Origin: a phage
Length of the DNA: 64,000 nucleotides
Reading direction: 5' to 3' (one strand)
Assembly (NCBI GenBank): GCA_014685065.1
Contig: GCA_014685065.1_4092.2
Of this stretch, positions 3,010-44,999 are shown in pieces. The position numbers and the translations under genes are program-made. The first letter of the stretch is position 1. Each line of letters starts with the position of its first letter. The notes beneath the pieces are model-generated. The model saw only the letters and a list, made by a program, of their open reading frames with translations, was not told the DNA's origin and ran no database searches.

Positions 3010-3042
3010 GGGTTGACTTCGGTCAGCCCTTTTTGCTATAAT
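3010..3042 (+). terminator. terminator hairpin GGGTTGAC-TTCG-GTCAGCCC + T5 whose arm and tail also spell TTGACT-N18-TATAAT (dual terminator/promoter element, copy 1)
   Basis: read directly; one G-U wobble in stem; UUCG loop. Confidence 0.6.
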
Positions 3043-3070
3043 TATTTCATCAAGACGAGAGGATGAATAC

Positions 3071-3586
3071 ATGACACGCATTAACTTAGTACACGTTAAA
3101 GAACTTGCTGACCAACATCTGATGGCTGAATATCGTGAACTCCCACGTGTATTTGGTGCTGTACAAAAACACGTTCAAGCACGTAAGCGTGTACGTGATT
3201 TCAAAATTAACAGTACTTATCTGTTAGGTTCAGGTCATGTGACATTCTTTTACGACAAGTTGCTGTACTTACAGAAGCGTCATATCGATATTGTTAACGA
3301 ATGTTTGCGTCGTGGTATGAAGATTCAAAACACTGAAGTAAACGACATTAGCGGCTTCCCTGCTGAGTTTTGTAATGACTACGTACCAACGGAGTCAGAG
3401 ATTAAAATGTCTCGTGATCGTTTGATTGAGAAGCTCCAGATGAAGCCTACGTGGTATAAGTTTACTGATGTTGAATGTCCACAGTACGTTAAAGATATGC
3501 AGAACGTAAGTAGTAAGAACGAATCTAGTACTGATATGTTCGACGAAATTGAAGAACAAATCAAAGATGAAATGAATAATTATTAA
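3071..3586 (+). CDS. denV: pyrimidine-dimer DNA glycosylase / endonuclease V
   Basis: N-terminal ~130 aa align with T4 DenV as I recall it ([50 protein letters not shown]); extra acidic C-tail. Confidence 0.85.
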
Positions 3587-3624
3587 AGGAAAGGGTTGAC
3601 TTCGGTTACACAAAGGAACATAAC

Positions 3625-3819
3625 ATGTTATTAGTATATTCAAAGCGTTTCTGGATTTCTTTTATTGTACTATCGCTAATCGGCTTCGGTTTGAGTATAC
3701 TCTTTTCGTGGGATGAATTGGGTACATGGTATTATGAAGTCCCGTGGTACATGAAGATAGCTCCTTGTTATGCGGCATTGTTCGTGTCATTCCTTATTGT
3801 TGTCTTCAGCGAGGATTAG
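3625..3819 (+). CDS. small membrane protein
   Basis: ORF track; hydrophobic. Confidence 0.45.
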   Translation: MLLVYSKRFWISFIVLSLIGFGLSILFSWDELGTWYYEVPWYMKIAPCYAALFVSFLIVVFSED

Positions 3820-3870
3820 TTGATGTAGTATGTGCTACACCAAAGTATTTGGATATTTTAGATATAAACA

Positions 3871-3899
3871 TTGACACCTGTTCTATCTTTCTGTATTAT
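3871..3899 (+). promoter_or_regulatory. sigma70-like promoter TTGACA-N17-TATTAT
   Basis: read directly; precedes 3926 gene. Confidence 0.5.
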
Positions 3900-3925
3900 G
3901 TACATCACCAAATGAGGAATACAAC

Positions 3926-4285
3926 ATGGCATCTTTAAGTGAAATCGCAGAATACAACCCACTAACAATCTCAACAATTCAACGTACAAAAACTTTTTAT
4001 TTCCGTCCTGCTGATGGATGGAAACGTGGAATGAATGGTGACTATCGAGTACTGGAAGATTCACTAATCGAGCGTATCAACTCTGAACTACAGAAGTATG
4101 AAGGTGTTAAAGTTGTGCGTTCAACTTCTCGTTATTTTGAGTACTACATTGAGTCTTCAACTGTAAATGAAAACTCATCATTCTCGGTGGACAACACTGA
4201 TATTCTTCGTAATGCTGTTGGTCTTTTATGCAGGATTGCAGAAGAAATTGGATTAACTATCACCACAATGAGTGAGTTAGAATAA
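3926..4285 (+). CDS. hypothetical protein
   Basis: ORF track; SD GAGGAA. Confidence 0.6.
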   Translation: MASLSEIAEYNPLTISTIQRTKTFYFRPADGWKRGMNGDYRVLEDSLIERINSELQKYEGVKVVRSTSRYFEYYIESSTVNENSSFSVDNTDILRNAVGLLCRIAEEIGLTITTMSELE

Positions 4286-4291
4286 CATAAA

Positions 4292-4324
4292 GGGTTGACT
4301 TCGGTCAGCCCTTTTTGCTATAAT
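4292..4324 (+). terminator. terminator/promoter dual element, copy 2
   Basis: GGGTTGACTTCGGTCAGCCCTTTTTGCTATAAT. Confidence 0.6.
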
Positions 4325-4350
4325 TATTTCATCAACACAAGAGGTAACAA

Positions 4351-4587
4351 ATGAAACTATCTTTTATACGATTAGCTGAATTCTTCGGTACTGATGTAAT
4401 TACTTTACAACAAATTGCAGATAATACTTCATTAAGTACACAAGAAGTACTTGACTTAGATGTAATTCAGTGCGATAATACTTCCATCGATTTCAAAGAA
4501 GGTCTTGTCGAAAAAGATAAGATTAAAGCTAAGATTAATGGTGCTGGGCGGGTTCAGTACTGGAAAGGAGTATTAAGTAATGTTTGA
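4351..4587 (+). CDS. hypothetical protein
   Basis: ORF track; SD GAGG. Confidence 0.5.
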   Translation: MKLSFIRLAEFFGTDVITLQQIADNTSLSTQEVLDLDVIQCDNTSIDFKEGLVEKDKIKAKINGAGRVQYWKGVLSNV

Positions 4588-5698
4588 ACAGTATTATTTA
4601 AATGAAGATGGTGAAAAAGTTTATTTTCATGAAGAACTTGGTATGCGTTTTGAATGGATGAAGCCTGAAGATATAAAAAGGGTTTCAAAAGGACTCACTG
4701 CTAAGGATCATGTTGATGACATAGAAGCAAAATTAAAAAACAAAGATATTGACAATATTACTATTATTGGATTATCAGTTAAATCATCACGTGAGTTTGG
4801 TAAAAACGGAAATAGTAATAACAATTTACTGATTATGTATAATGGGGTATTGTATGATAATTATAAAATAACTGGTTTAAAAACAAAGCTTGAAAAAATA
4901 ACAAACAATAAATTCAAGCCATCATTTACCTATACAGATGAAAATTATTATTACTATGTAACCAAATTGGGTTCTCTTGAGGAAAGAGGATGCTATATAT
5001 ATGAAAATGAACATTTAGACAATGGGATAATGTCATATATTAAATTCACATATTCCGATGGATTTACACAACCACGAAGAATAAATGATATAATTACAAA
5101 AACATCAATGAACGTTAGATATTTTATAACACCTGAAATGCGTGAAACAATTGCTAACACACGCTGTAATGAACTAGGATATACATTAAAAGAAGTTTAC
5201 AAGAAATCAAATGGTCGTTATTATGTAAAATATATATGTGATAAAGGACACGAGTGTAATCAAGACTATTATGCGTTTACTAGTAAACAAGCACAAAAGT
5301 GTGGATGCTGTTCCCAATTAGAAACACACTCATTTGGTCATAATGATTGTAAAGAGTTTTTGAGAGGAATGTTTGTTACTGAAAGAGAGAAAACATTTCC
5401 TGATTTAAAAAATAAATCAAAACTTCCATATGATTTTTATATTCGTGATATTAATACGTTATTTGAATATGATGGTAGTAATCACTTTGAAGAACGTGAA
5501 TCAGGATGGGGAAACGGACTTATGAGGAAAAAACACGATAAAATCAAAACAGAATACGCAATAAAAAATGGATATAACTTCATTCGTATTGCGTATTATG
5601 AAGACCATATTGGAGCATTGAAATCTTTCCTTAAACTCATTGAAGAGAATCCAGGAAAGCAAATCGTGCAGATCTATGGTGAAGTACAAATTATCTAA
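4580..5698 (+). CDS. putative endonuclease with C-terminal Vsr/DUF559-like PD-(D/E)XK domain and Cys/His cluster; very AT-rich
   Basis: motifs PYDFYI..LFEYDGSNHFE..RKKHDKIKTEYAIKNGYNFIRI; CDKGHEC..CGCC; SD GGAAAGGAG. Confidence 0.55.
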   Translation: MFEQYYLNEDGEKVYFHEELGMRFEWMKPEDIKRVSKGLTAKDHVDDIEAKLKNKDIDNITIIGLSVKSSREFGKNGNSNNNLLIMYNGVLYDNYKITGLKTKLEKITNNKFKPSFTYTDENYYYYVTKLGSLEERGCYIYENEHLDNGIMSYIKFTYSDGFTQPRRINDIITKTSMNVRYFITPEMRETIANTRCNELGYTLKEVYKKSNGRYYVKYICDKGHECNQDYYAFTSKQAQKCGCCSQLETHSFGHNDCKEFLRGMFVTEREKTFPDLKNKSKLPYDFYIRDINTLFEYDGSNHFEERESGWGNGLMRKKHDKIKTEYAIKNGYNFIRIAYYEDHIGALKSFLKLIEENPGKQIVQIYGEVQII

Positions 5699-5705
5699 AA
5701 CAAAA

Positions 5706-5738
5706 GGGTTGACTTCGGTCAGCCCTTTTTGCTATAAT
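5706..5738 (+). terminator. terminator/promoter dual element, copy 3
   Basis: GGGTTGACTTCGGTCAGCCCTTTTTGCTATAAT. Confidence 0.6.
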
Positions 5739-5766
5739 CATTTCATCAACTGAAGAGGGTAAAGAA

Positions 5767-6537
5767 ATGACCAGAGAAGCACGCAGCATTCAAATTCAGA
5801 AAAACTTCAACTCCATGATGGTTGCTCTTGAGTGTTTGCTCGATGATAGCAGTACTGTAAAAAGTATGGTTGTCAGTGGTGCTCCTGGTGTTGGTAAGAC
5901 TTACACCTTGTCCCAACGTCTCCAGAAGGCTCATGACGCAGCAGAATGGAACGTAGCTACTATCAGTGGTAAGATGACTACACTGGCTCTGTACGAAGTT
6001 CTGTACAAGAATCGTCACAGCACCAACGTGTTAGTACTGGATGATATGGACAGCATCTTTGATTCTGAAGACGGTATGAACCTGCTCAAAGCTGTTTTGG
6101 ATAGTGGTAAGCGTACTGTATCTTATATGACTAGCTCTAAGTACTTGAGCACTAACGGCATTCCTAATAGCTTTGATTTTAATGGTCGCATCGTATTCAT
6201 TACTAACAAAGATTTAGCGTTAGATGCTAAAGCTAAAACTAAAATGTCTGCTCATTATGCTGCTCTTATGTCTCGTTCTGTGTACGTGGATTTACAGATT
6301 CAGACTAAAAGTGATATCATGATTCATATTGAAAATGTAATGACTAAGACTAATATTCTTGCATCTAAAGGTGTTAACAGTAACGGTAGTAAAGCAATTC
6401 TGAATTGGATGTTGAAGCACGAAGATTCTCTTCGTTCACCTTCACTGCGTATGCCACTGTTGATTTCGGCAGTATATAACAACAACCCATACGATTGGGA
6501 AGAACAGTGCGAAAACTTGTTCCTTGAAAAAATTTAA
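5767..6537 (+). CDS. P-loop NTPase (AAA-like ATPase)
   Basis: Walker A GAPGVGKT, Walker B VLVLDDMD. Confidence 0.7.
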   Translation: MTREARSIQIQKNFNSMMVALECLLDDSSTVKSMVVSGAPGVGKTYTLSQRLQKAHDAAEWNVATISGKMTTLALYEVLYKNRHSTNVLVLDDMDSIFDSEDGMNLLKAVLDSGKRTVSYMTSSKYLSTNGIPNSFDFNGRIVFITNKDLALDAKAKTKMSAHYAALMSRSVYVDLQIQTKSDIMIHIENVMTKTNILASKGVNSNGSKAILNWMLKHEDSLRSPSLRMPLLISAVYNNNPYDWEEQCENLFLEKI

Positions 6538-6602
6538 TTCAATATTGACAGTACTAACAATGTGTAGTACTATAACAAAAGTTTAATCACTGGAGACACC
6601 CA

Positions 6603-6944
6603 ATGCGTGAGTTTTTTGAATCTAATATAATGCTTGGTATTACACTGATATACATGTTTGTATTCTTGTTTTATCATTCAATTGTAATTAGTCTTTGGTA
6701 TTTTAAAAGGAAAGTTGTTTTTAAATTGTATTCGTATGATAATGTATTCTTAGTTGTATATAGCATTATACAAGGTGGGTTTATTTTATTTGGTGTGATG
6801 ACATATGTGATTTACATGTTACAAATTGATAACACACCACACATTACACAATATGTTGTGTTTTCAGGACTAATCGTCTGGTTATTGGTGTGTACTATGT
6901 ACTTTATTATTAAAGCTCGTAATAACTTTAAATGGGGATTCTAA
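6603..6944 (+). CDS. small membrane protein paralog
   Basis: ORF track; near-duplicate of 6944..7282. Confidence 0.55.
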   Translation: MREFFESNIMLGITLIYMFVFLFYHSIVISLWYFKRKVVFKLYSYDNVFLVVYSIIQGGFILFGVMTYVIYMLQIDNTPHITQYVVFSGLIVWLLVCTMYFIIKARNNFKWGF

Positions 6945-7282
6945 TGTTAGAATTTTTTAAATCAGATACAATGATTAGTATTACTTTGATTTATCTGTTT
7001 GGTTTTTTCTTTTATCATGCACTAGTTGTAGTACTATGGTATTTTAAAAAGAAAATTGTTTTTAAACTGTATCCAGTGAGGAATTCATCACTAGTTCTTT
7101 ACACACTTGTTCAAGGTTTGTTTGCAATTGTTGGTCTTATGGCACACTTAATTTATTGTGCTAATCCTCACTTGAACTCAATCTCACAATATATTGTATT
7201 CTTTGGGTTGTTCATTTGGTTAGTTGTATACTTAATCCATCTCATTATTCATGGTAGAGATAAAATTCGCGGAGACTTCTAA
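6944..7282 (+). CDS. small membrane protein paralog
   Basis: TAATG overlap; WYFKKKIVFKLY motif shared with 6603 gene. Confidence 0.55.
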   Translation: MLEFFKSDTMISITLIYLFGFFFYHALVVVLWYFKKKIVFKLYPVRNSSLVLYTLVQGLFAIVGLMAHLIYCANPHLNSISQYIVFFGLFIWLVVYLIHLIIHGRDKIRGDF

Positions 7283-7629
7283 TGTTTGAAGCTTATCTTG
7301 AGTTTTTAAGGAGTAGTCCAGTTGCACATTCACTTGCAGGGATTATTCTAACAACTTATGTATCATTTTGGGTAGTTATGTTTCTAGGATGGTATTTTAA
7401 ACGACAATTCTATAAACGTAATGGTGAAGATTTTATGAATTCTGTCATTAATCAATCGTTGTTTGCATCAACATTGATTGCATGTATTGTAGCAACACTC
7501 ACAGGAAAGGTACTACCAGCTTTTTCCGCAGTTTACGGCACACTTGGGATGATATGTTTAACTTTTATATTGACCATTAAAATTTGTTGTGTTATGATTG
7601 AACTTCGAAATAAGATACCGGAGGAATGA
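7282..7629 (+). CDS. small membrane protein paralog
   Basis: TAATG overlap; hydrophobic; WYFKRQ motif. Confidence 0.5.
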   Translation: MFEAYLEFLRSSPVAHSLAGIILTTYVSFWVVMFLGWYFKRQFYKRNGEDFMNSVINQSLFASTLIACIVATLTGKVLPAFSAVYGTLGMICLTFILTIKICCVMIELRNKIPEE

Positions 7630-7964
7630 TGGAGTACTTTATTGATTTACTGCCGTGGTATATGAAAGTTAGTACTTTGTACTATATTATTAGTGCTGGA
7701 TTCTACTTTCTGATGTGGTTCTTCAAACGACCAATTTCAGTATTCATCGCTGATAACATGCTGCAATTAAAATTACACGCATGGTTTGGTATGGCGATGA
7801 TTATGCCTATTATTCACTACTCAATGATTAGTAGAGGTTTCCGTTCTAATGGTGAACCAATTGTATTAGTATTCTATTGGGGTTCAACTATTGCATATGT
7901 AAGTTTGTTGTTGTTCCCAGTCGTTCATAAATTACGTGCTAAAGTTCCTGATGCGAGGTACTAA
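7626..7964 (+). CDS. small membrane protein paralog
   Basis: ATGATG overlap; hydrophobic; WFFKRP motif. Confidence 0.5.
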   Translation: MMEYFIDLLPWYMKVSTLYYIISAGFYFLMWFFKRPISVFIADNMLQLKLHAWFGMAMIMPIIHYSMISRGFRSNGEPIVLVFYWGSTIAYVSLLLFPVVHKLRAKVPDARY

Positions 7965-8278
7965 TGGATATCGTAACATTGATTTACACGTTGTATTCAT
8001 TCTATTTCATTATGTGTTGGGTTGGATTTTTATTTGTACTGAAGATGTTTGATTATGTTGAAAAACAGATAAAAGAATTTTGTATTCCTTTTATTGGGTC
8101 AACCATTATTAGTATTACTTGTTTGTATTATTTGGTATGTGATCCACCTGATAATACAGCAATGATTGACTTGATGTTACTACCAACAACTGTTACTTTT
8201 TTATGTAGTCTGATGCCGCCGATTAGCCGTGGACTAACAGAATTTAGACGCAATCAAAAGCGTAAACGAGGGATGTAA
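7964..8278 (+). CDS. small membrane protein paralog
   Basis: TAATG overlap; hydrophobic. Confidence 0.5.
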   Translation: MDIVTLIYTLYSFYFIMCWVGFLFVLKMFDYVEKQIKEFCIPFIGSTIISITCLYYLVCDPPDNTAMIDLMLLPTTVTFLCSLMPPISRGLTEFRRNQKRKRGM

Positions 8279-8646
8279 TGGAAATTGCTCTTATTATCTT
8301 AACTGCTATGCTGTTTATTAGTACTGTGGTTATAATTGGTAAATTCTTTTGTGTATCATTTTTAGAAACGGTATACGATGAAATTGCTGATGATTATGAA
8401 TTACAAGCCGGATTTTTCATTACGTATTGGCTTAGTTTATTTTGTCTAGTCATTGCTTGGATTTTACATATCTTTAAATGGGGTATGGTAGACGGTGATC
8501 CTATTATGGCAATTATTGTTCTAGTGTTTGGTATCCTTGGTGGTGCAGTGCATAATCTAATGGTTATCTGGCAAACTGTTCAATATGTTTTGGTTCCCTA
8601 TTTCGAAAAGATGCACAGTACAATTAAAAAACGTAAACGAGGTTAG
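8278..8646 (+). CDS. small membrane protein paralog
   Basis: TAATG overlap; hydrophobic. Confidence 0.5.
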   Translation: MEIALIILTAMLFISTVVIIGKFFCVSFLETVYDEIADDYELQAGFFITYWLSLFCLVIAWILHIFKWGMVDGDPIMAIIVLVFGILGGAVHNLMVIWQTVQYVLVPYFEKMHSTIKKRKRG

Positions 8647-8647
8647 T

Positions 8648-9010
8648 ATGAACGGGATAGAATTATCTTTCGTTGGTCAATTACTAGTAATGGCGTATAC
8701 ATTTATCTTCTCACTGAATGCATTCGTGTGCATTGGGAAGTACTTCCATAAGCGACCATTATCAAATATATATGATGTAATCCAAAAGAGATATAGTCCA
8801 GCATATACTGTGTTGGGTACAGTATTCAATTTTGGTTTTATTGTATTAATAATTGGACTGTTCACATCCTCTTTGAATACAATAACCTTCGGTCTTATGA
8901 TATGTTCATTGGTATTAGCCGTAATTATATGTTGTTTAGTACTGCACCTTGTGGTACTATTGTATATAAAGATCTCTGAAATCCACCAACGTTTGGGTAT
9001 GAGGAAATAA
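8648..9010 (+). CDS. small membrane protein paralog
   Basis: ATG at 8648 after previous stop; hydrophobic. Confidence 0.5.
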   Translation: MNGIELSFVGQLLVMAYTFIFSLNAFVCIGKYFHKRPLSNIYDVIQKRYSPAYTVLGTVFNFGFIVLIIGLFTSSLNTITFGLMICSLVLAVIICCLVLHLVVLLYIKISEIHQRLGMRK

Positions 9011-9011
9011 T

Positions 9012-9383
9012 ATGAGTTACCGTGAGATATTTTCCATTATTTCAATTATTATGTTCAGTACTGGAACACTGGTATGGTTATTATACTTCTTCTGTATTAA
9101 TCCAGTGTATAATATGTTATGTAATATTAAATCAAGTGCCGGATATATCACTTTTATGGTCTTTATGGGATATTATTGTCTAAGCATTTTAGGTGTTGTT
9201 TTGGTTGTTATATTTGATGTGGGACCAAATAGTGATGGTATGGAAATACATGAATTAATAACCATGTTTGGATGTATGATACCAACAGCACTACTGTTTG
9301 TAGCTACTGGTAGTGGATTGATAAAATTATATAATTATTTAAAATCCATTCATAATTCCATTCATAATAAGCGTATGTCATAA
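9012..9383 (+). CDS. small membrane protein paralog
   Basis: ORF track; hydrophobic. Confidence 0.5.
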   Translation: MSYREIFSIISIIMFSTGTLVWLLYFFCINPVYNMLCNIKSSAGYITFMVFMGYYCLSILGVVLVVIFDVGPNSDGMEIHELITMFGCMIPTALLFVATGSGLIKLYNYLKSIHNSIHNKRMS

Positions 9384-9424
9384 TAAAAATCCAGTACTTA
9401 ATAGTACTGGATGTATAAGGAGTT

Positions 9425-35356: not shown

Positions 35357-35362
35357 AAAAAG

Positions 35363-35394
35363 TGGTTGACTTCGGTCAGCCATTTTGCTATTAT
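35363..35394 (+). terminator. terminator/promoter dual element, copy 4 (variant)
   Basis: TGGTTGACTTCGGTCAGCCA + TTTTG + TATTAT. Confidence 0.55.
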
Positions 35395-35498
35395 ATATTC
35401 ATTGAGAGATAGCTCACTAGCCCACAGGGTGCAGGAATGTATCTATTGTATAATGATTGAGTACTGAAAACTATTTTAAAGTATTTGATAAAAAGTAC

Positions 35499-36500: not shown

Positions 36501-36510
36501 AAATATTATC

Positions 36511-36548: not shown

Positions 36549-36592
36549 AACTTTTATCAACAGTAGTTAACTTAACCTAAGAGAGAAACATC

Positions 36593-37370: not shown

Positions 37371-37628
37371 ATGGCTGTAGGATTCACGAAAGATGGGGCC
37401 GAGCAAGACGAGATTAACGCAGTGATTCAGGCCGCTGTTAACCACGCTAGAACGCAAATTAACGCACAAATAGAATCACTGATACATTGCCTCGACTGCG
37501 GCGATAAAATCCCTGAGAATCGCCGCCAGGCAGTTAAGGGGTGTAAGTACTGCATCACTTGCCAGGCTGATCATGATAGCATATTCAAACGCAATCCCCG
37601 TAATTGTTGGCATAGATCTATGAGATAA
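37371..37628 (+). CDS. DksA/TraR-family C4 zinc-finger protein
   Basis: CLDCGDKIPENRRQAVKGCKYCITCQ matches CxxCG..IP..RR.A....CxxCQ. Confidence 0.7.
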   Translation: MAVGFTKDGAEQDEINAVIQAAVNHARTQINAQIESLIHCLDCGDKIPENRRQAVKGCKYCITCQADHDSIFKRNPRNCWHRSMR

Positions 37629-37634
37629 AAAGTA

Positions 37635-37662
37635 TTGACAGTGCTGTTAGTTAGTGTATAAT
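37635..37662 (+). promoter_or_regulatory. sigma70-like promoter TTGACA-N16-TATAAT
   Basis: read directly. Confidence 0.5.
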
Positions 37663-37691
37663 ATTTTATATCTTAACTGAGGATTGAAATC

Positions 37692-38048
37692 ATGGGTATA
37701 CAACATATCACGCGTACTACAGACAATGGTGAGATCACTGGCTATCAAGTACAAGGCAAAGTAGCACAATTGCAGTACTGGTTTGTTAAACGTGGCATTG
37801 TTGCACCAGATCTTGATTATAATCGTGTAGCGTTTATTGATTCTCTTTATGTTGATCCCGATAATCGCGGTAACGGTGAAGGTACTGAATTAATGAATGC
37901 CTTTATTGATGCCGCCGATGATTCAGATTGTATCATCTTAGAATGCGATACGGGAGAAGATAACGCATTTAATCTTAAAGAATGGTATGAAAGTTTTGGT
38001 TTTGAAGTGCTGATGGACTGCGAATATCCTATAATGATTTTATCCTAG
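37692..38048 (+). CDS. possible GNAT-type acetyltransferase
   Basis: motif-A-like YVDPDNRGNGEGTELMNAF (R-x-x-G-x-G); weak. Confidence 0.4.
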   Translation: MGIQHITRTTDNGEITGYQVQGKVAQLQYWFVKRGIVAPDLDYNRVAFIDSLYVDPDNRGNGEGTELMNAFIDAADDSDCIILECDTGEDNAFNLKEWYESFGFEVLMDCEYPIMILS

Positions 38049-38051
38049 TAC

Positions 38052-38110
38052 TTGCAATTAGTTTTAAGTACTGTATAATAGTTTACATGAAGGGGAGAAT
38101 AGTTCTCCCC
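38052..38110 (+). promoter_or_regulatory. early promoter cassette + hairpin
   Basis: TTGCAA 38052, TATAAT 38074, GGGGAGAATAGTTCTCCCC. Confidence 0.65.
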
Positions 38111-38127
38111 ACTACAAGGAAAGACAA

Positions 38128-38316
38128 ATGCAAAACTTATCAAGTATTTTAGTACAAGATGATTTCGGTAATCCTGGAAGTGCTATCATTGTTCGGGGTA
38201 ATAAAGCAACATTTGTTATTGCTGGTGGACCTGTACAGCGTAGCATTAAAAACAATGCAGTTACAATCAATAATGTTCGCTATCGCTTGGATAAAGAATT
38301 GATTCATAAACTGTAA
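38128..38316 (+). CDS. hypothetical protein
   Basis: ORF track. Confidence 0.5.
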   Translation: MQNLSSILVQDDFGNPGSAIIVRGNKATFVIAGGPVQRSIKNNAVTINNVRYRLDKELIHKL

Positions 38317-38343
38317 TATTAATTTAATAGAGGATAAAAATAA

Positions 38344-38667
38344 ATGTATATTCATACTACTATCACAAAAGAAGTTCGTTGTCAATTCGAAAGTATCCCT
38401 GGTGTATGTTTCATTACAGGCACTTTCTCACCTGGTGACCGTGATAATCCAGTACTGTTACAGTTACGCCATCCATTATGGGATAAAGCATTTGATCTGC
38501 CGTTGAATGAATTCGCAACCACTGCTGATAAGTACATTAAAAATATTCGCGAGAATGATTGCCTATTCATTAATGCTTTTAGTGATGCCGCGTTAAGTGA
38601 GATCCATGCTGTATTGGTTGCAATCATGGAATCAATGGAGAAAACTATATTCAAACAAGGTGAATAA
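38344..38667 (+). CDS. hypothetical protein
   Basis: ORF track; SD GAGGA. Confidence 0.55.
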   Translation: MYIHTTITKEVRCQFESIPGVCFITGTFSPGDRDNPVLLQLRHPLWDKAFDLPLNEFATTADKYIKNIRENDCLFINAFSDAALSEIHAVLVAIMESMEKTIFKQGE

Positions 38668-38673
38668 AAACTA

Positions 38674-38733
38674 TTGACAATGTAATCTAGTACTGTATAA
38701 TAGTTTACATGAAGGGGAGAAATGATTCTCCCC
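38674..38733 (+). promoter_or_regulatory. early promoter cassette + hairpin
   Basis: TTGACA 38674, TATAAT 38696. Confidence 0.65.
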
Positions 38734-38750
38734 ACTAAGAGGAAAGAAAC

Positions 38751-38963
38751 ATGCAAGGTCAACTAATCGTTCGTAAATGGTCTGATACTAACGAAAAACC
38801 GTGGGATGTTCAATATATCGGACCGGACGGTGTTTCACGTTATCAACCTGGCGTAACGCATAGTACTGAGCAATATGCCGCCGCTCACCGTGAACGCCTG
38901 TTAGAATCTATGAAACAGGGATTCTGTGAAAAATTCATTCAAGATCATTGGCTGAAAGATTAA
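38751..38963 (+). CDS. hypothetical protein
   Basis: ORF track. Confidence 0.55.
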   Translation: MQGQLIVRKWSDTNEKPWDVQYIGPDGVSRYQPGVTHSTEQYAAAHRERLLESMKQGFCEKFIQDHWLKD

Positions 38964-38980
38964 TAGAAGGAGTACAGCTT

Positions 38981-39073
38981 ATGCAAATGAATCCGATGAT
39001 TGTTGTGTTAGCTGTACTTATGGTCATTCATGCCATCGTAGAAGTACTAACACAATCAGGAGTAATACAATGA
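38981..39073 (+). CDS. micro membrane peptide (30 aa)
   Basis: SD AAGGAG 8 nt upstream; hydrophobic; speculative. Confidence 0.35.
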   Translation: MQMNPMIVVLAVLMVIHAIVEVLTQSGVIQ

Positions 39074-39240
39074 TCCAGGTGGAATTATCAGTACTGAAAG
39101 ATCTGTTTTATCGGTTAGGCACTACTGGCGAATACCCTAAAGGGGATACTGCTAAACTATACATTGCATTGGATGTATGGCAACGTAATGAACTGGCTAA
39201 CGCCTGGCGTAAAGGTAAATCAGAGGGGATTGCAGCATGA
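39070..39240 (+). CDS. small hypothetical protein (56 aa)
   Basis: ATGA overlap; SD AGGAG. Confidence 0.4.
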   Translation: MIQVELSVLKDLFYRLGTTGEYPKGDTAKLYIALDVWQRNELANAWRKGKSEGIAA

Positions 39241-39386
39241 AAGAATTCTTATTCGAAGTAGTGTTCCAGGGCGTAGGAAGTAACCAACTGATTCGATCAA
39301 GTGGTTACAATGTTAACCAGGCATGGAATAACATTAAACAAATGTACCCGAACGCTATCACATATCGCAACCCAAAACAAGTTTAA
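39237..39386 (+). CDS. small hypothetical protein (49 aa)
   Basis: ATGA overlap. Confidence 0.35.
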   Translation: MKEFLFEVVFQGVGSNQLIRSSGYNVNQAWNNIKQMYPNAITYRNPKQV

Positions 39387-39400
39387 AAAGAATTAAAAAA

Positions 39401-39433
39401 GGGATTGACTCCGGTCAGTCCCTTTGCTATTAT
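39401..39433 (+). terminator. terminator/promoter dual element, copy 5 (GGGATTGAC-TCCG-GTCAGTCCC variant)
   Basis: read directly. Confidence 0.55.
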
Positions 39434-39530
39434 ATACGCATAGAAACAAATCAGCCCACAGGGTGCATAAATGTATCTATTATATGCTGGTGGCTAGTAC
39501 TATCAAGTACTGAAAACTATTTTTAAAAAG

Positions 39531-39700
39531 TACTTGCAAAGTATCACGATAAGCGTATAATGTTTTACATCAGGACGGGGAACGAAACAAGTAACTCCCC
39601 GTTAAGTAGTCCAGGAGTAAGACATACGAAAACCTCCCCTGATAAAATAGTTTGACAATACCAAGTAAACGAGTATAATACTTACATCAACCACAAAGAG
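39531..39700 (+). promoter_or_regulatory. second copy of the long tandem-promoter leader module seen at 29204-29349
   Basis: near-identical ~170 bp. Confidence 0.5.
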
Positions 39701-39709
39701 GAATACAAA

Positions 39710-39910
39710 ATGAAACATTTTACTTTCGGTGTAGTAGGCTTTACAGTATCCAGCGGCGTTTATAAATCAGAACGCGGTGCTAAAAATGCAGCAAGTCGGG
39801 CGTATGGTTCACAGCGTGACTTACAGGTCGGTTATATTAGTAACATTAATAACATGTTTATTCCTGTTTCACAGCGTAAAGCGGGTAACATGAAATGGGA
39901 AACAATTTGA
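39710..39910 (+). CDS. hypothetical protein
   Basis: ORF track; SD AAGAGGAA. Confidence 0.55.
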   Translation: MKHFTFGVVGFTVSSGVYKSERGAKNAASRAYGSQRDLQVGYISNINNMFIPVSQRKAGNMKWETI

Positions 39911-39918
39911 TAAAATAG

Positions 39919-39978
39919 TTTGACAATAGTTTTTAGTACTGTATAATAGTTTACATCAAGTGGGGAATAGTTCCCCAC
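39919..39978 (+). promoter_or_regulatory. early promoter cassette + hairpin GTGGGGAATAGTTCCCCAC
   Basis: TTGACA 39919, TATAAT 39942. Confidence 0.65.
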
Positions 39979-39999
39979 CTAACAAAGAGAGAAATTAAA

Positions 40000-40275
40000 A
40001 TGCGGATTCTACTGACAGCTAACGAAATCGAGCAAGTACTGACTACTAACCTGGAAGACTGGAAACGTGATGCAGATATCCAGGCGGTGCAATGGCTCAA
40101 TGATAAGTTAACGCCGGATGATTTAAGTAAGATTGTAGATCCACAATTCTATGAAGATATTCACGACACGGCTTTAAGCGTCGAGGATGTACTTGATAAG
40201 CACTACATTGATATTGATTTGCAGGTTTACGGTCGTAAAAACTTTATCACTATTCACGACATTTATAATAATTAA
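40000..40275 (+). CDS. hypothetical protein
   Basis: ORF track. Confidence 0.55.
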   Translation: MRILLTANEIEQVLTTNLEDWKRDADIQAVQWLNDKLTPDDLSKIVDPQFYEDIHDTALSVEDVLDKHYIDIDLQVYGRKNFITIHDIYNN

Positions 40276-40278
40276 GTA

Positions 40279-40338
40279 TTGACAAAGTATCTTAGTACTG
40301 TATAATAGTTTACATCAAGGCAGGGGAATGGTTCCCCT
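40279..40338 (+). promoter_or_regulatory. early promoter cassette + hairpin
   Basis: TTGACA 40279, TATAAT 40301, AGGGGAATGGTTCCCCT. Confidence 0.65.
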
Positions 40339-40362
40339 CCTAACTAAAAGAGAGAAATTAAA

Positions 40363-40686
40363 ATGACTATGATCCTTACCCAGAAAGTAGAAATGAAAAT
40401 TGTAACTTCCTTTGACATTAAAGTTAATCGGTGGACTGATAGCCACGGCAATACTTACCACTCATGCTACGTGTCTGCATTGATTGGTGACCGCTGGGAA
40501 GACCTGGGACATGAAACCTTTACTTACGGTTACGGTACACAAGGCGAATACACGGGCTTGGAGATCATTAAAGAAACTGTAATAGGTTTCAACCCGAAAG
40601 AGAAAGTACTACACAGAATTGAGGATGAGATCAACAAAGAAATTACAGTTCGTTACTACGATGTAAAACGTAAGAAAGACATGTAA
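40363..40686 (+). CDS. hypothetical protein
   Basis: ORF track. Confidence 0.55.
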   Translation: MTMILTQKVEMKIVTSFDIKVNRWTDSHGNTYHSCYVSALIGDRWEDLGHETFTYGYGTQGEYTGLEIIKETVIGFNPKEKVLHRIEDEINKEITVRYYDVKRKKDM

Positions 40687-40700
40687 TAGAATCCATTTAA

Positions 40701-40737
40701 AGTACTATTTGACATTGCCCAGATAGTACTTTATAAT
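40701..40737 (+). promoter_or_regulatory. class II promoter with AGTACT inverted repeat
   Basis: TTGACA 40709, N17, TATAAT 40732. Confidence 0.55.
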
Positions 40738-40785
40738 AGACTCTAACTTGTAGTACTAATTAACTTAACTAATAGGATGTACACC

Positions 40786-41181
40786 ATGATTACTAAATTC
40801 TTCGCTACCCGTGAACAAGCTCGCATCGTTGCTCGTGAAGAAGGTGAAACATTTAAAGACATGGGCAAAGATGCACCGAAAGGACAACGCTGGGCGGTAC
40901 AGTTCAAAGAGATCTCTGATATTGTGAATTCACCTGAGCCTGTACTTACTGAAGCAGAACTGAAGAAAGCTCAAGAACTGGCTGAAGTACTGAACGCTCA
41001 AGATGACTTCTTGGAAGGTTCTGATATTGAAGTTACAGTTAACGCAAATGCATGGACTCACGCGGATCACCTGGCAAACCTTAAGCGTCCAAGTGAACTG
41101 ATTCGTAACCAGAAAGAGATCCGTCATGACCGTAAAGGAAACCGTGTAACAGTATACAGTAAACGCCGCCAGGTTATCTAA
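40786..41181 (+). CDS. hypothetical protein, paralog of 28815..29081
   Basis: shared N- and C-terminal motifs. Confidence 0.55.
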   Translation: MITKFFATREQARIVAREEGETFKDMGKDAPKGQRWAVQFKEISDIVNSPEPVLTEAELKKAQELAEVLNAQDDFLEGSDIEVTVNANAWTHADHLANLKRPSELIRNQKEIRHDRKGNRVTVYSKRRQVI

Positions 41182-41204
41182 TAACTTTGCAGTACTAACA
41201 ACAC

Positions 41205-41229
41205 GGCGGGAATAGTTCCCGCCTTTTTT
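41205..41229 (+). terminator. intrinsic terminator: hairpin GGCGGGAATAGTTCCCGCC (same family as 5' hairpins) + T6
   Basis: read directly. Confidence 0.65.
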
Positions 41230-41244
41230 ATAGGATAAACTAAA

Positions 41245-41499
41245 ATGATGAAGGTACAACTATCTAAAGATAATATCTTGCGGGTACACTATAAAGCACC
41301 ACAGAGAATCATCACAAAGGCCGTACAGCTTGCTAATGAGTTTATTAATGGTAGTCTATTACCCAGGAAGTTAAGCAACGGGAAACTACGTGTTATCGAT
41401 GTAGACACTAACAATAGAATAGTAATTGAGAGTACTGGAAAAATTAATCTATATGAACACCAACAATACAATAAAAAAATAAAACTAATATCACGTTGA
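41245..41499 (+). CDS. hypothetical protein
   Basis: ORF track. Confidence 0.5.
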   Translation: MMKVQLSKDNILRVHYKAPQRIITKAVQLANEFINGSLLPRKLSNGKLRVIDVDTNNRIVIESTGKINLYEHQQYNKKIKLISR

Positions 41500-41555
41500 C
41501 AGTACTCAATTGTTTTAGTATTATGTATCTATACCAACACAGAGAGAGAAACAAA

Positions 41556-41774
41556 ATGAAATTATCTAAAATCGAAAAGAAAACTATTGATGAAGCAGTG
41601 AAGCACGGTTATACCTTTCGTAATGATTCACACTTCACCAGTTTTCAACAGGGAAACCGTACCATCAAAAAACTCATTGATAAAGGTTTACTCACTAAGG
41701 TTGATAACGGGAACGGTGTAGAATATCAACCGACAGAAGACGCATTATCACTAAAGAAATATTCTATTATCTAA
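41556..41774 (+). CDS. hypothetical protein
   Basis: ATG at 41556 after a TTGACAGTACTCAAWTGTTTTAGTA leader repeat. Confidence 0.5.
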   Translation: MKLSKIEKKTIDEAVKHGYTFRNDSHFTSFQQGNRTIKKLIDKGLLTKVDNGNGVEYQPTEDALSLKKYSII

Positions 41775-41831
41775 TTGACAGTACTCAAATGTTTTAGTAC
41801 TATGTACGCATACCAACACGGGGAAAACAAA

Positions 41832-42074
41832 ATGATTACTTTAGAAAAACGTATCAAAGAGACTACAACGCTGGTGGAACTGTTAACCGTTCTTAAATGC
41901 CGGGTAACTCCATTCAGTACACCGGACTTTATCAACATGGTGGACGTTAACGGTCGCTATCGTATTGCGGTCGAACAAGGTACGGCAAAAGTATTCAGTA
42001 CTAAAAATACGCGTGAAGTATTCCACGCAGTAAGTACGAAAAAAGTAGTTGCCATTGATAGTAAAGTACTGTAA
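41832..42074 (+). CDS. hypothetical protein
   Basis: ATG at 41832; same upstream repeat as 41556 gene. Confidence 0.5.
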   Translation: MITLEKRIKETTTLVELLTVLKCRVTPFSTPDFINMVDVNGRYRIAVEQGTAKVFSTKNTREVFHAVSTKKVVAIDSKVL

Positions 42075-42105
42075 TATAGTTTCATTAACTCAAGGAGTCA
42101 ACACA

Positions 42106-42690
42106 ATGCGTAACTATACTAAATTCATCCGTTCACTTCATGCAATGGAAACCAACAAAGAGATCCTTTCAGCTTGTCGGTTAGCTGGACTGGAGATCGT
42201 CGGTGCGGGTTCTTCCCGTATTGTATTCGCTTTAAATGATCGGTTAGTGATTAAGGTCGCGAATTGTGATGCGGGTGTAGAACAAAATGAAACTGAATGT
42301 AAGGTATGGAATTTTTTAGATTATGACCGTCCGCACCTTAAACAGTTCTTTGCCAAGGTGCATATGCATTTATGCGATCCTGATAATCTGTTTATTGTTA
42401 TGGATCGTTTGAGTACTGCAAGCAAAGGCAGTGTAAAGCACGTAACCGCATGTAATGAGTTAAAGTACAATATTAAACGTAACACTATTGAACGCCATCA
42501 CCATTTCGCTGATGCTCTCAATCACGTTGATGATACATTATCCACACTAACGATAAGAGATATCAGAAAACAGAATATCGGCCAGGATCGCAACGGCTTG
42601 ATTAAAGTACTTGATTACGGTTTAACCCGCAATATCTGGAATCAGTACTATAAAAAACGTGATGTTAACGCGATAACTATAACACGATAA
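42106..42690 (+). CDS. protein-kinase-like protein
   Basis: Gly loop VGAGSSRIV, VIKVA lysine, RDIRKQNIG catalytic-loop-like, VLDYG DFG-like. Confidence 0.45.
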   Translation: MRNYTKFIRSLHAMETNKEILSACRLAGLEIVGAGSSRIVFALNDRLVIKVANCDAGVEQNETECKVWNFLDYDRPHLKQFFAKVHMHLCDPDNLFIVMDRLSTASKGSVKHVTACNELKYNIKRNTIERHHHFADALNHVDDTLSTLTIRDIRKQNIGQDRNGLIKVLDYGLTRNIWNQYYKKRDVNAITITR

Positions 42691-42704
42691 AAAAGATTAA
42701 AAAA

Positions 42705-42737
42705 GGGATTGACTCCAGTCAGTCCCTTTGCTATTAT
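42705..42737 (+). terminator. terminator/promoter dual element, copy 6
   Basis: GGGATTGAC-TCCA-GTCAGTCCC + TATTAT. Confidence 0.55.
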
Positions 42738-42831
42738 ATATTCATTGAGAGATAACTCACTGACCCATAGGGTGCGGAAGTGTATCTATTATATAAGTAT
42801 TCAGTACTGAAAACTATTTGATAAAAAGTAC

Positions 42832-42891
42832 TTGCAAACTATCTTAATGAGCGTATAATGTTTTATATCGAGAGGGGGAAATGGTTCTCCC
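42832..42891 (+). promoter_or_regulatory. early promoter cassette + hairpin
   Basis: TTGCAA 42832, TATAAT 42854. Confidence 0.6.
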
Positions 42892-42914
42892 TGGTACTAA
42901 AAGGAATCAAAACG

Positions 42915-43136
42915 ATGGCTACTATGACCTGCGTTCACGCTTCAAATCTTCTGAATGATGCAGCATTTAAAGCAGGTGAAGAATATCAATGCTATCGGGA
43001 TGAAAATAAAAAAGTTTTCGTCGTTGATGCTAACGGTTTCCATATTGAATTGCAATCCGGCTTCACTGGTTTAAATGGTAAATCAGTATGGGGCGTTAAT
43101 GATGATAATGGTCTTTATCACTTTATCCGTAATTAA
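42915..43136 (+). CDS. hypothetical protein
   Basis: ATG after SD AAAGGAA. Confidence 0.55.
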   Translation: MATMTCVHASNLLNDAAFKAGEEYQCYRDENKKVFVVDANGFHIELQSGFTGLNGKSVWGVNDDNGLYHFIRN

Positions 43137-43139
43137 GTA

Positions 43140-43199
43140 TTGACAAAGTATATCAGTACTGTATAATAGTTTACATCAAGGGGAGAATAGTTCTCCCCA
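43140..43199 (+). promoter_or_regulatory. early promoter cassette + hairpin
   Basis: TTGACA 43140, TATAAT 43162, GGGGAGAATAGTTCTCCCC. Confidence 0.65.
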
Positions 43200-43220
43200 C
43201 CAATAAAAGGAAACAAAATT

Positions 43221-43493
43221 ATGTCTAGCTACTCCGCTACTATGATCATTAAAGATATGAACGGTAATCCTACTTCTGCTGGTGGATCATTTGGAAACAT
43301 TAACTTAGATGGTCGGTTATCAATTGAATCAGCCATCAATGCAGCGAAAGAAGTTTTTAAGAATGAATGCACTGTAAGTAAGCTGGATTATATGGGATTC
43401 GCTATCGAGAAAACTAATCGTTTTGTGAACTACAAAAATCCACTGATGATTGATACTAACCTGAAAGCTAACGAAGTGGAATACTTATTATGA
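43221..43493 (+). CDS. hypothetical protein
   Basis: ORF track. Confidence 0.55.
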   Translation: MSSYSATMIIKDMNGNPTSAGGSFGNINLDGRLSIESAINAAKEVFKNECTVSKLDYMGFAIEKTNRFVNYKNPLMIDTNLKANEVEYLL

Positions 43494-43681
43494 CAGTTGA
43501 AGAAGTTAAAAAAGTACTGGCAGTACTACGCTATCATAATCATTGTAAGGTGAAGAATGATCCTGATTATGTTGATTCATCCCTGGAGGAAGACACCTTA
43601 AACGCGATAAGCTATATGCAAACATTAGCAAAGCGTATGACCGAAAAGAATAGGCCGGACTATATCGGAAATAAAATTTAA
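43490..43681 (+). CDS. hypothetical protein
   Basis: ATGA overlap. Confidence 0.5.
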   Translation: MTVEEVKKVLAVLRYHNHCKVKNDPDYVDSSLEEDTLNAISYMQTLAKRMTEKNRPDYIGNKI

Positions 43682-43687
43682 AAAGTA

Positions 43688-43748
43688 CTTGCATTGTAGT
43701 TAGATTAACGTATAATGTTTTATATCGAGAGGGGGAAATGGTTTCCCC
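43688..43748 (+). promoter_or_regulatory. early promoter cassette + hairpin
   Basis: TTGCAT 43688, TATAAT 43710, AGGGGGAAATGGTTTCCCCT. Confidence 0.6.
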
Positions 43749-43768
43749 TCAAGTCCAGGAGATACACC

Positions 43769-44032
43769 ATGAACACTATCGAAATCACTATCAATGCACA
43801 CGTATACGACAACGTAGTACTGCAAACTACTATGACCGCTAATGATACCAGTACTTTGCGGAATATCGTTATTAGTTCAGTATGTGCCGCTATCGGTGAT
43901 GTTGCCCTTGAAAATGCAAAACACGTCAACGATGCCTTTACGATGTGCAAACGTGATAACTCAAAACATATCATCTGCGAAGGTTACGGCGGTGTAGAAT
44001 ACAATGTTTATATGAAAAAAGTACTTGCATAA
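43769..44032 (+). CDS. hypothetical protein
   Basis: ATG after SD AGGAG. Confidence 0.55.
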   Translation: MNTIEITINAHVYDNVVLQTTMTANDTSTLRNIVISSVCAAIGDVALENAKHVNDAFTMCKRDNSKHIICEGYGGVEYNVYMKKVLA

Positions 44033-44081
44033 TAACTAAAACAAAGTATAATGTTTTGCATAGGGGGAGATATCCTCCCCC
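44025..44081 (+). promoter_or_regulatory. early promoter cassette + hairpin GGGGGAGATATCCTCCCCC (altered loop, pairing kept)
   Basis: TTGCAT 44025, TATAAT 44047. Confidence 0.6.
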
Positions 44082-44100
44082 ACTAATAAGGAGTACTAAA

Positions 44101-44325
44101 ATGGCTAACTTTGATGAACTGATGCGGGAAGTAGCTACCCTGGCAGAAGAGAAGAAATCATTCGATTCTATATATAACACCGCTTACAGTGATTCAGTAC
44201 TGGCATGTACTCAGGATCAAAAAGATGAACTGATCGCCACCTATCATGAAGCATGGAAGTATTACCGCCAATGGGAGAAAGAAGAAAGCGAGTCTACCAT
44301 CAACGGCATCAATAATCTAATCTAA
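44101..44325 (+). CDS. hypothetical protein
   Basis: ATG after SD AAGGAG. Confidence 0.55.
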   Translation: MANFDELMREVATLAEEKKSFDSIYNTAYSDSVLACTQDQKDELIATYHEAWKYYRQWEKEESESTINGINNLI

Positions 44326-44399
44326 AGTTTTATTTCAGTACTATTGACAATGCGTGATAGTACTGATGTGATAACTTTACTAACTAAAGGGGAAACATA

Positions 44400-44657
44400 A
44401 TGGAACAGTTCACACAATATCGGGTAAATCCTCAAGCTATGGCCTACGTAGAAGACCATAAAACGTTACCAGTACTAACACCAATTAAAGGCCATATCTA
44501 TCGTGCTATGCAGTGGAATAACGCCTATAATGGCTATAAAGCGGTATCCGCTGCAATGTACTTAGGGGATGGCGAATGGTTTGATCCAAATAATCCTGGT
44601 GCACTCGATAGTACTGAAAAAATGACATGGGCCGACTATATCGAAGATATCTCATAA
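44400..44657 (+). CDS. hypothetical protein
   Basis: ORF track. Confidence 0.55.
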   Translation: MEQFTQYRVNPQAMAYVEDHKTLPVLTPIKGHIYRAMQWNNAYNGYKAVSAAMYLGDGEWFDPNNPGALDSTEKMTWADYIEDIS

Positions 44658-44664
44658 AAACTAT

Positions 44665-44726
44665 TTGACAGTACTACAAGATAATGTATAATGTTTTACA
44701 TAGAGCGGGGGAATAGTTCTCCCGCA
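44665..44726 (+). promoter_or_regulatory. early promoter cassette + hairpin
   Basis: TTGACA 44665, TATAAT 44687, GCGGGGGAATAGTTCTCCCGC. Confidence 0.6.
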
Positions 44727-44745
44727 CCTTTAGGAGTAAAACATT

Positions 44746-44946
44746 ATGTCAATCGCTAACGAATTGGTTGCAGTACTGAATGAAGCAAAAGCCAACTGCA
44801 TCGATGTACAGATAAAAGAGCTTGGCAATGGCTTGATCGGCTGTACTTGTTCCGTGCAAACGGCTACCGATTATCGGGAAGTGGAATCACTCGAATCACT
44901 GGTACGGTATATTAAAATCCTGGTAGAAGATTGGAGAATCATCTAA
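44746..44946 (+). CDS. hypothetical protein
   Basis: ORF track; SD AGGAG. Confidence 0.55.
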   Translation: MSIANELVAVLNEAKANCIDVQIKELGNGLIGCTCSVQTATDYREVESLESLVRYIKILVEDWRII

Positions 44947-44965
44947 CAAAAAAGAATAAAAAAAA

Positions 44966-44999
44966 GGGATTGACTCCGGTCAGTCCCTTTGCTATTATA
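44966..44999 (+). terminator. terminator/promoter dual element, copy 7
   Basis: GGGATTGAC-TCCG-GTCAGTCCC + TATTAT. Confidence 0.55.

Follow-up and report, generated by a model that had tools for sequence, protein, structure and literature searches.

Promoter-early stem-loops (PeSLs) were described in phages RB49 and phi1 as a repeated intergenic unit composed of an AT-rich tract, a sigma-70 promoter, a stem-loop, a Shine-Dalgarno sequence (SD), and an ATG, with five subclasses distinguished by the position of the stem-loop, which in one of them overlaps the -35 hexamer (PMC2839356, Arbiol et al. 2010). In lacZ constructs, RB49 PeSLs gave a promoter activity of ~13,000 Miller units and termination comparable to that of rrnB T1, and recombination between RB49/phi1 PeSL copies was found to form mini-circles (PMC2839356). 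PeSLs were later extended to T4/PST and to the Vibrio phages nt-1 and KVP40, with an nt-1 consensus of A3-4G3-loop-C3T3-4 and TTGYVH-N17-TAWWAT and with degraded half-PeSLs near indels (PMC4122927, Comeau et al. 2014). Here, we analyze a 64,000-nucleotide (nt) stretch of phage DNA (GenBank assembly GCA_014685065.1; hereafter, the window) that holds seven copies of a hairpin with a -35 hexamer in its 5′ arm and a -10 hexamer just downstream. These cassettes belong to the published PeSL kind. What is new here is the presence of PeSLs in Asteriusvirus, the breadth of an identical core across phage groups, and the placement of one class of copies (class B) before a conserved leader box. The original prediction, made from the sequence of the window, was that each copy could both terminate upstream transcription and start downstream transcription. 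Sequence and comparison (the fold, the T-run, the coupling to a -10, the extended -10 TG, and the CA start) lend support to this dual reading, although the prediction had overlooked the published PeSL design, the A-tract and start region as parts of the element, and the fact that these seven hairpin-type copies are a minority among the dozens of promoter cassettes in the window.

The window is Asteriusvirus (Rak2-like) jumbo coliphage DNA: in a sequence search, positions 2500-8500 were 99.3% identical to Escherichia phages vB_EcoM_G17 (G17) and Sharanji, both Asteriusvirus, i.e., Rak2-like jumbo myoviruses of ~350 to 370 kb. Three of the copies, at 3010, 4292, and 5706 (class A), match GGGTTGACTTCGGTCAGCCC exactly. 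Three others, at 39401, 42705, and 44966 (class B), carry GGGATTGACTCCGGTCAGTCCC, which is matched exactly at 39401 and 44966 and differs at 42705 by the loop TCCA. The copy at 35363 (TGGTTGACTTCGGTCAGCCATTTTGCTATTAT, i.e., TGGTTGAC-TTCG-GTCAGCCA-TTTT-GCTATTAT) is intermediate, joining the class A stem, with its outermost G-C pair changed to T-A, to the class B -10; some of our counts group it with class B. For both GGGTTGACTTCGGTCAGCCC and GGGATTGACTCCGGTCAGTCCC, the number of matches expected by chance is 0 (dinucleotide shuffles). All seven copies are on the plus strand, 6 to 20 nt 3′ of the stop codon of a plus-strand open reading frame (ORF), and in all seven, the G-run is directly preceded by 3 to 8 A, as it is in the 98 relatives introduced below.

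The seven copies and their position after gene ends had thus been predicted correctly, and the predicted degenerate copy near 3591-3612 is a real half-element, GGGTTGACTTCGGT at 3593-3606, in which the A-tract, 5′ arm, and loop are kept and are followed by unrelated sequence and an ATG at 3625. The TCCG variant, which the prediction placed at four sites, is present at 39401 and 44966, with TCCA at 42705 and TTCG on a class A stem at 35363. The predicted length of ~33 bp for the element was too short, since class A copies show no difference over ~46 nt, beginning with the A-tract and reaching ~9 nt past the -10, and the four downstream copies (35363, 39401, 42705, and 44966) have ~130 nt more of 3′ sequence in common. 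Class A has the stop-to-ATG layout of a PeSL, with intergenic gaps of 62 to 68 nt in which an SD is followed by an ATG 28 to 29 nt past the -10. The copies from 35363 to 44966 have the PeSL core without this full layout: the next ORF starts 180 to 300 nt downstream, beyond the leader box and a second promoter.

Among described systems, nt-1/KVP40 PeSLs are the closest. Like them, the cassettes run from an A-rich tract through a G-run, a -35 in the 5′ arm, a loop, a 3′ arm, a C-run, and a T-run to a -10 at N17-18; they are intergenic and repeated among small unknown genes, with a short leader carrying SD and ATG and with degraded half-copies, and one of them here, at 5706, borders a gene replacement. 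The nt-1 intergenic sequences AAAAGGGTTGCTTCGGCAGCCCTTTTTGCGTATTAT, AAAAGGGTTGCACTATGCAGCCCTTTTTAGTATTAT, and AAAAAGTGCTTGCACTACGTAAGCACTTTCTGTATTAT also hold the -35 within the 5′ arm, and the 3′ arm changes in step with it. The differences are that the genome here is Asteriusvirus rather than Straboviridae, that the -35 is TTGACT rather than TTGYVH, and that class B does not abut a gene, being followed by a leader box and a second promoter. A 64-nt cassette query matched nt-1-like phages at 82 to 87% identity and was found at 709 places in 183 phage records, among them those of Rak2-like jumbo phages, Vibrio and Aeromonas T4-like phages, and ~150-kb Cronobacter/Pectobacterium/Klebsiella/Enterobacter phages. 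The exact 18-nt hairpin/-35 core, together with a CATCGAAAC-like start region, occurs in Rak2-like enterobacterial jumbo phages, Vibrio/Aeromonas T4-like phages, and ~150-kb Cronobacter/Pectobacterium/Klebsiella phages.

RB49/phi1 PeSLs follow the same concept, and one of their subclasses lies over the -35, but their stems are mostly poly-G/poly-C and usually sit over the -10 or in the interval that separates it from the -35, and their sequences are unrelated to the TTGAC-UUCG-GUCAG hairpin. An ordinary Rho-independent terminator with a separate promoter would likewise provide a GC-rich hairpin, a U-run after the stop codon, and a sigma-70 promoter for the next gene; here, however, the two are superimposed in ~45 bp, with the -35 in the stem, the U-run as spacer, and the last U as the T of the TG. 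In the literature searched, we found no report of PeSLs in Rak2-like phages, and a full-text search with the hairpin and leader-box strings returned no relevant paper.

As expected for an intrinsic terminator, each cassette places a GC-rich hairpin and a U-run 3′ of a gene on the same strand. The sense RNA of class A folds into an 8-bp stem at -12.7 kcal/mol and that of class B into a 9-bp stem at -15.0 kcal/mol; a C-G pair closes the loop, which is UUCG or UCCG, and 3 to 5 T follow the stem directly. Pairing is kept through compensatory change, as the original prediction had held: class B has an inserted A-T pair, the 35363 copy exchanges G-C for T-A, and in a comparison set of 98 related hairpins from many phages (hereafter, the relatives), which includes stem variants and 27 loop types, the stems remain paired. 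The GenBank record of G17 annotates the hairpins as ARNold terminators (-17 and -13 kcal/mol), and the GAP32 and Munch records likewise annotate them as terminators only. A simple terminator scan found the class B and 35363 copies and missed class A because the flanking A and T tracts were counted as stem, leaving no T tail; we regard this as a tool artifact and not as evidence against termination. Plain terminators nearby (31752, 32479, 36744, 41205, and 56758) carry neither TTGAC nor a -10.

The antisense strand folds less well than the sense strand (-7.5 versus -12.7 kcal/mol) because the U.G wobble, formed by the first T of TTGAC opposite a G, becomes a C.A mismatch. Given this mismatch and a neighborhood in which all genes are on the plus strand, we rejected a bidirectional terminator; the same strand asymmetry of pairing led us to reject an operator reading of the inverted repeat.

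The 5′ arm of each hairpin also supplies the -35 of a candidate promoter. The class A copies have TTGACT-18-TATAAT (3013, 4295, and 5709; promoter score 11/12) and the other four have TTGACT-17-TATTAT (35366, 39405, 42709, and 44970; 10/12), all with an extended -10 TG (embedded TTGACT with TGCTATAAT or TGCTATTAT), such that the predicted 18-bp spacing applies to class A and is 17 bp elsewhere. All seven copies therefore contain the sigma-70-like -35 and -10 of a PeSL. The 3′ arm and T-run form the 17/18-bp spacer, whose final T makes up the TG together with the G after it, and a CA lies 6 to 7 nt past the -10 in 7/7 copies. The AAAAAA-GGG run 5′ of the -35 presumably resembles a proximal UP-element subsite.

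The association between hairpin and -10 extends across the relatives, of which 94 were scored in a direct TTGAY/-10 test. A -10 at spacer 17/18 follows 83 of these 94 hairpin-embedded TTGAY, compared with 317 of 2817 other TTGAY (11%; Fisher p ~2e-62, with copies that are not independent), and 69 of the 94 have TGn in addition. When IMG/VR was scanned for the exact 18-mer hairpin core GGTTGACTTCGGTCAGCC, 56 sites (53 distinct) were found on contigs of 108 to 378 kb; a -10-like hexamer lies at spacer 17/18 in 47 of the 53, and two sites are evident chance matches in GC-rich DNA. In the 98 relatives aligned on the -10, the T of the TG is present in 95% and the G in 84%. They have T at hexamer positions 1 and 3 (95% and 98%), which were not forced by the filter, and A 7 nt past the hexamer (87%) with a pyrimidine before it (96%). 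Their T-runs are mostly 4 to 5, and the lengths of C-run and T-run trade off (CCCC+TTT; CCC+TTTT/TTTTT; CC+TTTTT/TTTTTT) while the spacer stays at 17 to 18 bp. Since a terminator requires none of the conserved -10, TG, CA start, or spacer, these features point to a promoter half beyond the needs of termination. Conversely, the 3′ arm and T-run are conserved even though they lie in a promoter spacer, which has no sequence needs, and this argues in turn for the terminator half.

Altogether, we put the probability that both termination and initiation by these cassettes operate in vivo at roughly three in four. From the sequence architecture, folding, comparative conservation, and one cassette border, we infer termination, initiation, and recombination as follows. 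Host sigma-70 RNA polymerase would read each PeSL-type cassette early in infection. The RNA of the upstream gene would fold into the 8- to 9-bp hairpin with its UNCG tetraloop and, with 3 to 5 U after it, would end there. At the DNA level, the upstream A-tract would act as a UP-like element, the 5′ arm would provide the -35 TTGACT, the 3′ arm and T-tract would fill the 17- to 18-bp spacer, the last T and G would make up the extended -10 TG, and TATAAT/TATTAT would serve as the -10, with a CA start 7 nt on. The terminator would shield the promoter from read-through, making each gene cassette transcriptionally self-contained. Class A would drive the next gene through a 21- to 26-nt leader with an SD, and class B would drive a ~100-nt leader with a conserved box that runs into a second, standard early promoter.

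We consider it unlikely that the hairpins are terminators only, with TTGAC and TATAAT inherited or present by chance and unused by RNA polymerase. GenBank annotators did record terminators alone, AT-rich DNA yields promoter-like matches (61 versus 52.6 expected in 1-10500), and in some relatives, the hairpin with TTGAC is present but a -10 is not. Yet the -10, TG, and CA start are outside the needs of a terminator and are conserved far above the 11% background, the spacer is held at 17 to 18 bp by compensating run lengths, the 62- to 68-nt gaps of class A contain no other promoter, and the plain terminators nearby are without these features.

Comparison with a few related genomes shows gene replacement at one of the cassettes. 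Homology to phage 121Q covers 1-4575 and resumes at 5702, and homology to phAPEC6 breaks at 4582 and resumes at 5698; in both phages, the gene at 4580-5698 is replaced by different genes annotated as endonucleases. The right border of the replacement is the 5706 cassette, and the left border (4575, 4582) is not at a cassette. The 372-amino-acid (aa) gene swapped between relatives has no Pfam function and so cannot be called a homing endonuclease. In phAPEC6, 3475-3865, the segment holding the half-copy at 3593-3606, is absent, and the denV cassette, whose promoter is intact, differs in its stem, which contains a second wobble, and in its loop, TTCA. The region from 34 to 46.5 kb is highly mosaic among relatives. 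There, G17/121Q block borders fall at the standard promoter cassettes described below (~36020/36196, 36518, 37040, 37645, 39694/39908, 40267, and 43135), and in other phages, joined matches end at 35344 and 39385, a short distance 5′ of the copies at 35363 and 39401. Given their near-identity, the copies could act as recombination points for cassette swaps between related phages.

A stronger version of this idea, in which the cassettes are mainly recombination linkers, retained for the exchange of genes by PeSL mini-circles or by swaps that homology drives, with control of transcription in second place, appears decidedly unlikely to us. It would fit the three copies identical over 46 nt that flank 1.3- to 1.4-kb cassettes, the replacement borders at 5698-5702 against two phages, the scar-like half-copy at 3593-3606, the match ends at 35344 and 39385, and the published mini-circles of RB49 (PMC2839356). 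However, the left borders coincide with no cassette, class B copies are internal to G17/121Q blocks, homing could explain the swaps given the endonuclease annotation of the replaced genes in relatives, and recombination alone leaves the position-specific conservation of promoter and terminator unexplained. Most improbable of all is a promoter only, whose inverted repeat, centered on the -35 in the classic operator layout and followed in class B by a short U-run, would be an operator or an RNA 3′-end or processing stabilizer, since the repeat is imperfect as DNA (T opposite G in 89 of 98 relatives) but pairs as sense RNA, has UNCG tetraloops with C-G closure and a T-run conserved in a spacer without sequence requirement, undergoes base-pair insertions and swaps that preserve pairing and not sequence, and directly follows a stop codon in each copy.

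Several points weigh against the dual reading and its recombination component. With just three U directly past the stem, class B may terminate only in part. Because the copies share descent, the counts and statistics overstate independent support. A few relatives, such as AAAAGGTTGACTTCGGTCAACCTTTTTTTGTAAATA in 121Q, retain the TTGAC hairpin without a usable -10, which indicates that TTGAC can persist by descent alone. Measured activity and mini-circles belong to RB49/phi1 PeSLs only, which have different stems, and we found no mapping of transcripts or transcript ends for this phage or any Asteriusvirus in the literature; the RaK2 genome paper mentions neither promoters nor terminators. As for recombination, class B copies are interior to the homology blocks of G17 and 121Q (two genomes) and do not mark their edges, and the role is documented here for one class A border only (5706). 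The features of the cassettes and of the leader boxes that follow four of them are collected in Table 1.

Table 1. Hairpin-type cassettes and associated leader boxes in the window (starts are predicted)
Feature	Coordinates	Strand	Details
Class A cassette 1	3002..3049	+	A-tract 3002-3009; hairpin 3010-3029 (UUCG loop); -35 TTGACT 3013-3018; T5 3030-3034
Class A cassette 1, promoter part		+	TGC and -10 TATAAT 3037-3042; predicted start CA 3048/3049; then SD and denV ATG 3071; terminator annotated in G17
Class A cassette 2	4289..4331	+	Hairpin 4292-4311; -35 4295-4300; -10 4319-4324; predicted start 4331; SD, ATG 4351; terminator annotated in G17
Class A cassette 3	5697..5745	+	Hairpin 5706-5725; -35 5709-5714; -10 5733-5738; predicted start 5745; SD, ATG 5767; right-hand gene-replacement border versus 121Q and phAPEC6
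Half-cassette (degraded PeSL) GGGTTGACTTCGGT	3593..3606	+	3′ arm, T-tract, and -10 lost; fused to SD/ATG of ORF 3625-3819
Intermediate cassette	35357..35401	+	Hairpin TGGTTGAC-TTCG-GTCAGCCA 35363-35382; -35 35366-35371; T4; -10 TATTAT 35389-35394; predicted start 35401
Class B cassette	39395..39440	+	Hairpin 39401-39422 (9 bp, UCCG); -35 39405-39410; T3; TGC and -10 TATTAT 39428-39433; predicted start 39440; homologous copies are annotated terminators in G17
Class B cassette, loop UCCA	42699..42744	+	Hairpin 42705-42726; -35 42709-42714; -10 42732-42737; predicted start 42744
Class B cassette	44958..45005	+	Hairpin 44966-44987; -35 44970-44975; -10 44993-44998; predicted start 45005
Leader box CTAG-CCCACAGGGTGC-N7-TATCTAT after 35363 cassette	35417..35446	+	Within the transcript predicted for the 35363 cassette; standard early promoter then at 35499-35526
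Leader box after 39401 cassette	39451..39480	+	Standard promoter then at 39534-39561
Leader box after 42705 cassette	42760..42789	+	Standard promoter then at 42832-42859
Leader box after 44966 cassette	45016..45045	+	Promoter then at 45122-45150

The leader box has the consensus CTAR-CCCAYAGGGTGC-N6-8-(CCG/GTA)TCTAT and always lies 27 to 32 nt past the -10 of a sigma-70-type promoter. Besides the four sites in Table 1, it occurs at 29140-29175 and 37097-37130 on the plus strand and at ~31236-31269 on the minus strand, where it follows plain TTGACA-N17-CATAAT promoters (29088, 37044, and 31322 on the minus strand). Boxes after plain promoters are likewise present in RaK2, GAP32, CBB, and other jumbo contigs, at times as convergent pairs, and the box is found in 121Q as well. 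Since the box follows plain promoters in these sister units, the class B hairpin element fills a promoter slot. An RNAalifold analysis of the class B leader with 19 homologues gave only a 4-bp CCC/GGG hairpin with 0 compensatory changes, and a tiny ORF (MYLLY...) in the leader was rejected, its start codon being missing in the 44966 copy and in other phages. A phage regulator might bind the box, or the box might act as a nut-like or processing signal. We offer as possible, though doubtful, the further idea that one lineage of the cassette is truly mobile between unrelated phages and that class B copies are dedicated promoters for an undescribed regulatory element defined by this box (CTAR-CCCAYAGGGTGC-N6-8-TCTAT).

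On the minus strand of 31190-31325, the leader box comes after a TTGACA-17-CATAAT promoter (31322-31294) and before a palindromic hairpin (31215-31192) that also ends the plus-strand ORF 30967-31188; this unit could encode a ~95-nt small RNA convergent with that ORF.

Standard early promoter cassettes (AAAAAGTACTTGCAAA or TTGACA, ~N16, GTATAATGTTTTACATC) number in the dozens between 26700 and 46000, at about one per small ORF, each with a GGGGAGAATAGTTCTCCCC-like stem-loop in the 5′ untranslated region, no U-run, and then an SD. They resemble the hairpin type in being repeated sigma-70 promoters with a stem-loop before small genes (AAAAAGTACTTGCAAA-N-GTATAATGTTTTACATC, GGGGAGAATAGTTCTCCCC, SD). 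They differ from it in that the stem-loop lies past the start site without a U-run, in carrying AGTACT boxes, and in numbering dozens as opposed to seven. With G17/121Q homology blocks breaking at them, the standard cassettes look like the main PeSL-like shuffling units of the phage. AGTACT occurs 248 times in the whole window versus ~21 expected, and CAGTACTG 52 times versus ~0.9; these sites cluster at 20-48 kb and are found next to the -35 and -10 of standard promoters as well as within terminator stems (GCCAGTAC...GTACTGGC). AGTACT is missing from all seven hairpin-type cassettes, which may therefore be regulated differently.

Further copies of the hairpin were seen in 121Q (L003). At 1858-1900, in sequence that lies upstream of where the window begins, the hairpin recurs with a shorter G/C run and a TATACT at spacer 17 that overlaps TATAAATA (a T4-like late promoter) ahead of virion protein genes. 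In a copy at 3435, all stem pairs are Watson-Crick (GTCAACC) and the -10 is lacking. These copies suggest that the hairpin module is reused in other promoter contexts. Another tight terminator-then-promoter arrangement is found on the minus strand at 10300-22200, where ~nine paralogous genes (245 to 433 aa, with conserved starts; annotated in relatives as RCC1-repeat proteins) form an array. Each has a GCCAGTAC-N-GTACTGGC terminator behind it and, no more than ~15 to 20 nt on, a TAAATA-like motif resembling a T4-type late promoter.

The window has ~35% G+C and is dense in small plus-strand ORFs; ARAGORN found no tRNAs in it, and Rfam gave no matches at gathering thresholds across it, with chance-level matches only in a permissive scan of 35340-35600. 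Among the genes around the class A cassettes, Pfam names only denV and an AAA-like ATPase. A ~1.9-kb segment at 26100-28000, with just two short ORFs (58 to 63 aa) at a sign change of the GC skew, contains short iteron-like repeats: GTAATCA/GTGATCA has eight occurrences in 26208-26454, and units resembling GGCTAGAT/GGCTGGAT lie in 27100-27270. The segment could represent an origin of replication or the region of a genome end. Tandem paralogous small ORFs fill 46500-52100 and 62000-63900, as ~70-aa units every 212 to 215 bp with a common TAGGAACAAACTATCAA core and as four ~150-aa units with 142-nt repeats ~470 bp apart.

Our results indicate that the PeSL design reaches the Rak2-like jumbo phages, whose relationship to T4 is only distant, and that the nt-1-type cassette, with its -35 buried in a terminator stem, is widespread. 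Genome annotations list these hairpins as terminators only and so would overlook the early promoters that overlap them. The cassettes mark likely borders of transcription units and possible recombination points in variable early regions, and the leader box behind class B is possibly worth follow-up. As a ~45-bp part that would combine an insulator with a strong promoter, the element could also interest synthetic biologists.

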